A stretch of DNA of 62,708 bases from Escherichia phage PA16, in sequence record KP682377.1, one strand, 5' to 3'. Made by a program: the position numbers. Numbering within the stretch: position 1 is the first letter of the stretch; each line of letters begins with the position of its first letter. This document shows positions 24,001 through 27,000 of the stretch, one piece after another.

Positions 24001-27000
24001 GTACAGGGATGGTCAGCCAGTGGCGGCAGGGCAGAAGTGGTCAGCGATGCGGAGGGAACCGGAGGTAAGGCAGTGAAGCTGACCAAGGAAGCCGGTAAAA
24101 GCAGCTGGGTGCTGGAGTACGCCGCGGGCAACGGTGCGGCTCTGTTACAGAAAGGGGGGCAGATTCGCTGCCGCTTTAAGGTTTCGGGAGCGCTGGCTGC
24201 GAACCAGTATGTTATGGCGTTTTACTGGCCGGTATCTTCACTGCCACAGGGCGTTGCCCTGACCGGAGACGGGGGGAATAACCTGCTGGCAGCGTTCTAC
24301 ATCCAGACAGATGCAAAAGACCTGAATGTGATGTACCACAATGCGAAAGTGAACCGCCCCGGGTTTCCTGGAGAGTGTTTTATCTGTGAACTCAGGCTGC
24401 CAGATCATCGTTTCCGATGGAAGCATAATAAGCTTTTTCTGCTTCTGCCGGAGGAGTATGGCCCAGCCTTCCCAGCAATCGTCGATTGTTATACCAGTCC
24501 ACCCACGTTAGTGTGGCCAGTTCCACTTCTGCACGGTTTTTCCAGCTCTTACGGTGTATTACCTCCGCTTTGTAAAGACCATTGATGCTCTCAGCCATCG
24601 CGTTGTCATACGAGTCGCCTGTACTCCCTGTTGATGCCAGTAATCCGGCTTCTTTTAGTCGCTCCGTATAGGCCAGTGACACATACTGAGAGCCTTTATC
24701 GCTGTGATGGATGGTGCCAGACGGACGACGGGCCCACAACGCCTGCTCCAGCGCATCCAGCACGAATGTCGTTTCCATAGACGATGAGACCCGCCACCCC
24801 ACGATGTATCCGGCAAACACATCAATGATAAACGCCACATAGACGAAGCCCTGCCATGTGCTGACGTAAGTAAAATCAGCCACCCACAGCTGGTCAGGTC
24901 GTTCTGCCACGAACTGACGGTTTACGCGGTCGCCTGCGGCAACGGCTTTCCGGCTGATGGTCGTACGGACCTTTTTACCCCGGAGAACACCGGCAAGTCC
25001 CATAACCGCCATGAGACGTGCCACTGTACATCTGGCCACCCTGATTCCTTCCCGTAACAACTGACGCCAGACTTTACGCACACCGTACACCTGATGATTT
25101 TCATCGTATACGCGCTGTATCTCTCTCTTCAGCCAGTCGTCGTGCTGCGCACGGGCACTGCGTTTATCCGGATGATGTCGCTGTTGCTGACAATGGTAAT
25201 ACGTTGACGGGGCAATATGCAGTTCGCTGCATACCGGTCCGACCCCGTACTGCTCACGCAGCTTATCCAGCAGTGGCATCATTTTTTCCAGAGGCGGTCG
25301 AACTCCGCCTTCGCAAAATAAGCGGAAGCCTGGCGAAGGATATCGTTACTGCGGCGCAGTTCACGATTTTCACGTTCCAGCTCTTTCAGACGCTGACGTT
25401 CAGCGCTGGTGAGCCCACCATCACCGCCCCCGGTATCCCGCTCATGCTGGCGAACCCAGACACGCAGAGTCTCCGGCGTACAGCCAATCTTTGGGGCAAT
25501 GGAACAAATTGCCGCCCACTGTGAGTCATATTCATCCTGACTTTCCAGAACCATACGAATCGCCCGCTGACGGACTTCGGGGGAAAAACGAGTATTTTTA
25601 GTCATCCTGTTTACCTCTTTCTCAGGGAGTTTAGTCTCCAGGATTTCCGGGGCGGTTCAAAAGTGGCGACAAACAACCTGAAACTGGGAACCTTTGGCGC
25701 ATTTGATAACGAATGGCATACGCTGGCTTTCCGCTTTGCCGGGAATAACAGCCTGCAGGTGACGCCGGTTATTGATGGTCAGGATGGCACACCGTTCACG
25801 CTGACGCAGTCACCGGTCAGTGCCTTTGCGGCGGATAAACTGCATGTGACAGACATTACCAGAGGTGCGACTTACCCGGTACTGATAGACAGCATTGCGG
25901 TGGAAGTGAACAGCACAGACACTGCGGCATGATAAAAAAACCGCCAGCGACAGGAATGGACGCTGGCGGTGGTGATACCTATGGAGAAAAAATAAAGGAA
26001 CGATACTTTCGTACTCTGGTTTTTAATGAAAACAGTTCTTATTGTCAACAATAACGGAAAGAAATTATGACATTTCTGAACCAGTTAATGCTGTACTTCT
26101 GTACGGTGGTCTGTGTGCTGTATCTCCTTTCGGGTGGGTACAGGGCCATGCGTGACTTCTGGCGCAGACAGATTGACAAAAGGGCCGCTGAGAAAATCAG
26201 CGCCAGTCAGTCAGCCGGAAGCAAACCCGAAGAGCCGCTCATTTAGCGGCAACTTTCTTAATCACACCTTTCGACGAGAAAATCCCATGTCAGAAATTAC
26301 ATCCCTGGTCACTGCAGAGGCAGTGAAGGACGTCCTGCGCTCTGAAGAAGTCCGGAGCGCACTGAAACAGAAACTTCGCCATAACCTGGAAGCGCGTCTT
26401 GATGCAGAAGTGGATGCCATTCTGGATGAACTGCTTGGTGTACAGGCAGAGCCACCGACTGAAGCGGGAGATACCACCGCAGAGAGCGGTGAAGTTCAGC
26501 CTGAATCACCGGTCGCCGATGCGACTGAACCTCAACCCGAATCGGTCATGATGCTGTAACGGGGAGTCAGGGCCATCAGTAAACAGCTGCTGGCCTTTTT
26601 CATGTTGTGAGCTTCCGGATTGCGGGAGACGGGGTATGTACCAGATGGAAAAAATCACAACAGGTGTGTCATACACCACGTCAGCGGTGGGAACGGGCTA
26701 CTGGTTCCTGCAGTTGCTGGACAGGGTTTCCCCGTCTCAGTGGGCGGCAATAGGCGTGCTGGGGAGTCTGCTGTTTGGGCTGCTGACATATCTGACGAAC
26801 CTGTATTTCAAGATTAAAGAAGACCGGCGTAAGGCGGCACGGGGAGAGTAAGCTGATGAGCAGGAAACTCCGCTATGGTTTATCGGCTGCCGTTCTGGCG
26901 CTGATTGCCGCAGGTGCTTCTGCGCCTGAAATCCTCGACCAGTTTCTGGATGAAAAGGAAGGTAACCACACCACAGCATACCGTGATGGTGCGGGTATCT

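Follow-up and report, generated by a model that had tools for sequence, protein, structure and literature searches.

The 62,708 nucleotides (nt) of Escherichia phage PA16 analysed here (record KP682377.1, hereafter the window) contain a nanS-p gene interrupted at codon 557 by a copy of the insertion sequence (IS) IS629, also known as IS1203v. We consider it very probable that this insertion is a tolerated marker of a phage lineage, and one that is reversible in principle. Its anatomy, the target-site duplication, the exact restoration of the gene, the distribution of the allele and a scar allele in two sister phages were all observed directly, and nothing contradicts the insertion itself. The window belongs to the PST1-1 / Sp5 (VT2-Sakai) type of Stx2a phages, podoviruses of the genus Traversvirus. 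The nanS-p::IS629 insertion has already been published in detail and has long been known to mark the Sakai-type Stx2a phage. Yin et al. 2015 (PMC4587872) placed IS629 at nt 24,350-25,659 in 13 PST1-1 phages of 62,708 bp, and Rump et al. 2011 (PMC3271280) listed the site as 'IS.3, Sp 5 stx2'. The resulting protein of 634 amino acids (aa) is NanS-p 'sequence 16 / CTR3', reported in 18 phages, and the IS is its sole difference from the 645-aa 933W-type protein (AIMS Microbiol 2023, PMC10462455). Confirming the insertion adds nothing new to this; the mild added value of our analysis lies in the footprint found in phages PA12 and PA51 and in the context of capsid decoration.

The IS629 element and its target site

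Reading the sequence and open reading frames (ORFs) of positions 23500-27800 delimited an IS3-family element of 1310 bp on the minus strand (Table 1). It ends in TGAACCGCCCCGG... on one side and in ...CCGGGGCGGTTCA on the other. The 13-mer TGAACCGCCCCGG has two exact copies in the whole window, inverted and one per IS end, where 0.03 would be expected by chance; a search with this terminal 13-mer for further IS629 copies in the window returned both ends of this element only. The original prediction had described the terminal inverted repeats as perfect, but they match at 22 of 25 positions and are perfect over the outer 13 nt only. With ends of the form TGAACC...GGTTCA, the element fits the IS3-family pattern of about 1.2-1.5 kb, imperfect inverted repeats and 5'-TG...CA-3' termini.

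The coding part of the element is complete. orfA and orfB overlap by 4 nt (ATGA, orfA stop and orfB start), directly after a run of six A residues at 25282-25287. The ALIL pseudoknot in this region is a full-length match to its Rfam model, scoring 121.5 bits (gathering score 50). A -1 slip would yield a predicted OrfAB fusion of 404 aa, the same length as the 'programmed frameshift' coding sequence that the Prokaryotic Genome Annotation Pipeline (PGAP) assigns to an identical copy in strain PA20, where the pseudoknot is annotated as well. The rve core of OrfB (PF00665) was detected with E = 9e-28, and D136, D195 and E231, at spacings of 59 and 36, are its candidate DDE residues. Every sequence feature of the IS3 family is therefore present and intact, in agreement with the earlier description of a 1310-bp element with intact orfA and orfB.

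Table 1. Coordinates of the IS629 element, its target-site duplication and the two parts of nanS-p in the window
Feature	Position	Strand	Remarks
Shortened nanS-p ORF	22681-24585	+	634 aa; codons 1-556 authentic, then 78-aa tail from IS antisense strand; stop 24583-24585
Target-site duplication AAAG, left copy	24346-24349	.	
IS629 / IS1203v	24350-25659	-	1310 bp, IS3 family; direction opposite to phage late operon
Terminal inverted repeat IRR, orfB end	24350-24374	.	25 nt, 88% complementary
orfB	24392-25282	-	296 aa, Pfam HTH_21 + rve integrase core, intact; -1 frame relative to orfA
Programmed -1 frameshift region	25208-25324	-	ALIL pseudoknot, Rfam RF01497
orfA	25279-25605	-	108 aa, Pfam HTH_Tnp_1 DNA-binding domain, intact
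Terminal inverted repeat IRL, orfA end	25635-25659	.	25 nt
Target-site duplication AAAG, right copy	25660-25663	.	
Detached 3' part of nanS-p	25664-25932	+	residues 557-645, last ~40% of jelly-roll domain

The name of the element depends on the record consulted. A near-identical copy in VT2-Sakai (AP000422), with one substitution inside the IS, is annotated IS629, while the same element is annotated IS1203v in Stx2 II (AP005154) and 'IS3-like element IS1203 family' by PGAP. The copy of strain PA20 shows no difference from that of the window. Copies on pO157-type plasmids are 100% identical to it, compared with about 96% for those on Shigella plasmids. Following these annotated copies, we use IS629, the O157 convention for this isoform.

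The element is flanked by direct copies of AAAG, as the original prediction had noted. In the IS-free phage phi296 (PV189400) the corresponding position has a single AAAG, and the alignment shows no other difference on either side of it; a 4-bp target duplication is thereby proven. Published IS629 target duplications are 3-4 bp long (PMC3271280). A 3-bp duplication was considered here and rejected, since the frame is not restored when the element is cut out by itself or together with 3 bp. In-silico deletion of 24350-25663, that is of the IS and one AAAG, followed by translation gives one 645-aa ORF starting at 22681 and reading ...YHNAK|VATNNLKLGTF... across the junction, just as had been anticipated. 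The two nanS-p halves are 100.0% identical in DNA sequence to the intact gene of IS-free phi296-type phages, so the comparison with IS-free Stx2 phages agrees with the excision in silico. As judged from these alignments, this is a clean transposition into a formerly intact nanS-p, with no decay since.

Domains of NanS-p and the fate of the shortened protein

The restored 645-aa protein matches Pfam families DUF1737 (residues 3-53), SASA (152-275) and DUF6645 (489-607), all above their cut-offs. Residues 72-393 align to E. coli NanS/YjhS (PDB 3PT5, E = 2e-117) and form the esterase domain. Residues 423-640 match the crystallised C-terminal domain of phi24B NanS-p (PDB 6YP6) with 100% identity over 218 residues. 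The IS enters after codon 556 and thus breaks this C-terminal domain, a lectin-like jelly-roll, while sparing the esterase domain. Upstream of it, DUF1737 and the catalytic domain are unbroken and about the first 60% of the lectin-like domain is kept. The insertion takes off the last 89 residues, including 84 of the 218 crystallised ones, and adds 78 IS-derived residues. The original prediction was right that IS629 splits nanS-p downstream of stx2, as gene order and the annotation of the near-identical AP000422 copy confirm, and that DUF1737 is followed in this gene by SASA. Its picture of a split esterase gene needs qualifying: the domain that is cut is the lectin-like one, and the esterase domain stays whole.

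Carbohydrate binding has been suggested, but not proven by experiment, as the role of the NanS-p jelly-roll (PMC8065619). Neu5,9Ac2 esterase activity has been demonstrated for the 933W and EDL933 homologues (PMC8065619). Y510, Y515, Y540 and F611 have been named for a proposed sugar-binding site (PMC10462455). The 634-aa form (AKI86024.1, identical to UniRef A0A0H3JD65) keeps the three tyrosines and the GQSN motif at residue 85, and loses F611. The 3' remnant appears in GenBank as a separate 89-aa ORF with a GTG start at 25663 (AKI86027, Yin 2015). Next to it, at 25929-26054, a 41-aa ORF overlaps the nanS-p stop (ATGA); related records list its product as hypothetical (933W Orf24).

A role in the virion has been described for a homologue. 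According to a 2026 preprint (10.64898/2026.04.10.717836), phi24B gp84 is an abundant virion protein whose DUF1737 forms hexamers on the face-centre capsid hexons, and whose C-terminal domain is removed by autoproteolysis after phage release while the remainder persists. A2, Y42, G54 and S57, capsid-contact or cleavage landmarks of gp84 in the same preprint, are found in the NanS-p of the window. By this analogy, the interrupted gene may encode a structural decoration protein besides being an 'accessory' gene of the lysogen.

Two fates of the shortened protein appear about equally likely to us. It is quite possible that nanS-p::IS629 is a dead pseudogene whose 634-aa chimera misfolds and is degraded, a loss that other prophage copies of nanS-p would make harmless. 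The missing part of the crystallised beta-sandwich points in this direction, as a partial jelly-roll would be unlikely to fold, and PGAP labels both nanS-p halves pseudogene fragments. Redundancy is also consistent with it: uninterrupted homologous sites lie at a median of three places per genome, and EDL933 possesses at least seven active NanS-p enzymes (PMC8065619). However, the chromosomal NanS functions with its catalytic domain alone (3PT5 covers residues 72-393 only), and the natural autocleavage reported for phi24B indicates that losing the C-terminal domain need not destroy the rest.

Hardly less possible is that the truncated gene still gives a working protein, anchored to the capsid by DUF1737 and active as an esterase, minus its carbohydrate targeting, so that the interaction with mucin would be changed and not abolished. 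Both domains, with GQSN, are encoded upstream of the insertion, the four gp84 landmark residues are kept, and the IS-bearing phage type is common and inducible. The nonsense tail may, however, destabilise the 634-aa product; moreover, the capsid preprint has not passed peer review and deals with phi24B rather than Sp5. Whichever fate applies, the Sakai-type allele has been truncated by nature in its lectin-like domain alone, and it could be used to probe the role of that domain for the phage or in mucin use.

Lineage distribution and the IS-free sister phages

The 3,252-bp region of the insertion is 100% identical, at the same coordinates, in the 62,708-bp genomes of PA4, PA5, PA11, PA18 and others (e.g. 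KP682372). Against VT2-Sakai (AP000422) identity is 99.9%, and against Stx2 II (AP005154) it is 100.0% with a score one base below the PA set. Among 5,426 complete E. coli genomes, the left IS junction was found at full coverage in 55 with a 500-nt query, the Sakai prophage Sp5 included, and in 54 with a 300-nt query. The 55 genomes are O157 or O157:H7 wherever a serotype is stated; they come from several continents, with isolates from the US, Korea and cattle as well as one laboratory lysogen, and reach back to the 1996 Sakai outbreak. The uninterrupted site is present in 697 genomes, and its median of three places per genome reflects the several nanS-p paralogues on different prophages. In a collection of 15 billion proteins, 78 contigs carry the 634-aa form, compared with 999 or more that carry the 645-aa form. 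The insertion is hence a derived marker of one phage lineage, which includes Sakai, Morioka V526, the Pennsylvania PA strains and others, and not a recent event in a single strain. The original prediction had called it recent and precise. Precision is borne out by the exact restoration of the gene, whereas recency holds only in a relative sense. On the one hand, decay is absent, with flanks that match the intact alleles at 100% and an IS that does not differ from other copies; on the other, the insertion is fixed in a phage type found in 55 complete genomes.

In the complete assembly of strain PNUSAE146744, the IS-bearing phage appears as a separate replicon of about 63 kb outside the chromosome (NZ_CP133131.1, 63,329 bp), perhaps because the assembly caught the phage genome in an excised or circular form.

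PA12 and PA51 are IS-free PST1 phages of 61,388 bp (Yin 2015, PMC4587872). The size gap to the window is thus 1,320 bp and not 1,314. The PA12 gene (KP682376) differs from the restored gene solely by a 6-bp in-frame deletion, GAAAGT (equivalently AAAGTG), which comprises the target AAAG and two flanking bases and results in a 643-aa NanS-p without K556-V557. As a whole, PA12 equals the window minus 24345-25664 (the IS, both AAAG copies and 2 nt), with three single-nucleotide polymorphisms (SNPs) over its 61,388 bp. PST1-1 diversity reaches up to 5 SNPs (Yin 2015, PMC4587872), so that PA12 falls within its range. The junction shows 1-nt (G) microhomology. The deletion allele cannot be the ancestor of the insertion because the flanks of the IS are still complete. 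Yin 2015 and the 2023 survey of NanS-p (PMC10462455) are both silent on an excision or a deletion at this site, but we do not claim the observation as unpublished.

Comparison of the three alleles makes it very likely, in our judgement, that PA12 and PA51 carry an imprecise excision footprint of this very IS629 copy. Excision of IS629/IS1203v promoted by the IS excision enhancer (IEE) depends on transposase and gives precise events as well as deletions 'from a few nucleotides' upward (PMC9943667; PMC9397093; bioRxiv 10.1101/2023.06.07.543989), and small deletions flanking the IS and joined at microhomology have been described in this process (PMC9943667; bioRxiv 10.1101/2023.06.07.543989). In Sakai, iee is located on SpLE1 (PMC9397093). 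By analogy, IEE may have acted in PA12 and PA51 too.

Several points weigh against this interpretation and should be considered. Among 50,697 phage records the scar junction was found in PA12 and PA51 only, both 454-sequenced in one study, and NCBI lists the 643-aa protein under a single additional accession; in the 5,426 complete E. coli genomes the junction was absent, using a 50-nt query all of whose 28-mers span the junction. The host chromosome is not part of the window, so iee would have to be presumed. The weak points of the insertion as a tolerated and reversible marker are otherwise functional, the fate and activity of the 634-aa product being deduced. The rarity of the scar would fit a 6-bp deletion unrelated to the IS, arisen independently in an IS-free ancestor or as a 454 assembly artefact at the repeat. 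We find this improbable. The deletion takes exactly the 4-bp target site and two flanking bases, which only about 3 of some 61,000 positions would allow by chance, and the PA12 backbone is within three SNPs of the IS-bearing window. An assembler that collapsed the IS would have left one or two AAAG copies and kept the flanking bases. The reverse order of events, in which the IS came first and precise excision, a process known for IS629/IS1203v (bioRxiv 10.1101/2023.06.07.543989), then gave rise to the widespread 645-aa alleles, is effectively refuted by the distribution, as the uninterrupted allele occurs across many serotypes and phage types, also in 933W and phi24B, while the IS junction is confined to 55 genomes, O157 wherever a serotype is stated.

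The history that we propose for the lineage marker is the following. An intact IS629, predicted to be transposition-competent, entered nanS-p at codon 557, presumably by the copy-out-paste-in pathway of the IS3 family, duplicating AAAG and exchanging the last 89 residues of the lectin-like domain for 78 IS-derived ones. The capsid-binding DUF1737 and the SGNH/SASA esterase domain were left unbroken. The insertion is tolerated: the phages are still induced and packaged, and late transcription has to cross the IS in antisense. The PST1-1 genomes were closed from DNA of phage particles after ciprofloxacin induction (Yin 2015, PMC4587872); late transcription, packaging and lysis therefore still work in the IS-bearing phages, and Q-modified RNA polymerase presumably crosses the antisense IS. 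On the plus strand through the IS, the sole terminator-like feature is a weak 5-bp stem at 24359-24371, at the IS end, which we do not count as evidence of polarity. Finally, loss of the IS would be possible, PA12 and PA51 apparently being the same phage minus the IS with its in-frame scar. The 645-aa, 634-aa::IS629 and 643-aa scar alleles on near-identical backbones would then be a natural record of insertion followed by imprecise excision in a Shiga-toxin phage.

It is tempting to go further and assume a reversible polymorphism of a protein on the virion surface, with the insertion as one of its states. The IS-bearing phage would then show, or its lysogen release, a lectin-less esterase, and excision driven by transposase and IEE would regenerate in-frame alleles, with PA12 and PA51 as the natural footprint. 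If true, this would imply selection to restore the C-terminal domain. We regard such a functionally meaningful switch as unlikely, and as much less certain than the excision footprint itself.

Genomic neighbourhood and known systems

In the window, stx2A (20954-21913) and stx2B (21925-22194) are followed by nanS-p and then by the holin (26636) and lysozyme (26856) genes. Within the Q-dependent late operon, nanS-p thus comes directly after stx2AB and before lysis genes S and R, and IS629 is antisense to this operon. The spacer between stx2B and nanS-p holds matches to the Rfam small RNA (sRNA) STnc100 (22269-22474, plus strand, 207.7 bits) and to the anti-stx2 sRNA AsxR (22476-22528, minus strand, 88.1 bits). 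Three tRNA genes lie upstream of stx2A, at 20612-20863. The second and third are Arg(TCG) and Arg(TCT); the first is called Met(CAT) by ARAGORN, as opposed to tRNA-Ile, with a lysidine-type CAT anticodon, in GenBank records of the same phage. Farther away, matches to the Rfam families c4-a1b1, isrK and C4 antisense RNA at 17165-17363 mark an antisense immunity module of the P1/P7 style, with an ORF downstream of it at about 17416-18150. A sok antitoxin RNA match (59416-59590, 113.5 bits) beside a MokW-like ORF suggests a hok/sok-type module, and an sRNA-Xcc1 match lies near the right prophage end (62212-62300).

The closest known systems are Sakai Sp5 / VT2-Sakai and the PST1-1 phages PA4, PA5 and PA11 (PMC4587872), with the same element, site, orientation, duplication and coordinates. 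Nothing of substance separates the Sakai and VT2-Sakai records from the window: one base differs inside the IS end (24363, G>T), and the 1999 VT2-Sakai record (AP000422) has an extra G in the G-run at window position 23039. This extra G splits the 5' part of nanS-p into ORFs H0114 and H0115 and is probably a sequencing error of that old record. The paper that defined NanS-p 'sequence 16 / CTR3' (PMC10462455) did not map the break onto the 6YP6 fold, nor did it connect the 643-aa 'sequence 3' of PA12/PA51 with loss of the IS. phi24B gp84 / vb_24B_21 and 933W NanS-p (Z1466), from the same genus Traversvirus, share the three-domain architecture; their genes are uninterrupted, whereas that of the window has its last 89 residues detached.

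IS629 is also found close to stx2 and nanS-p in PA28 (PST3-1) and the EC4115-type phages, oriented as in the window but placed upstream of nanS-p. The PA28 insertion (1501-2810 of the NC_041935 locus; empty site at window 22657-22662) is independent, with 18 nt from the IS end to the nanS-p start codon, a 3-bp TTA duplication and an intact coding sequence. The stx2-nanS-p neighbourhood has thus been hit repeatedly by IS629, in PA28 and in the window. As for excision, IS1203v in stx2 and IS600 in lacZ of O121:H19 (PMC9397093) are IEE systems in which an IS3-family element is lost and the frame is restored, as in PA12 and PA51. IEE promotes excision in those systems, while for PA12 and PA51 the involvement of IEE is inferred.

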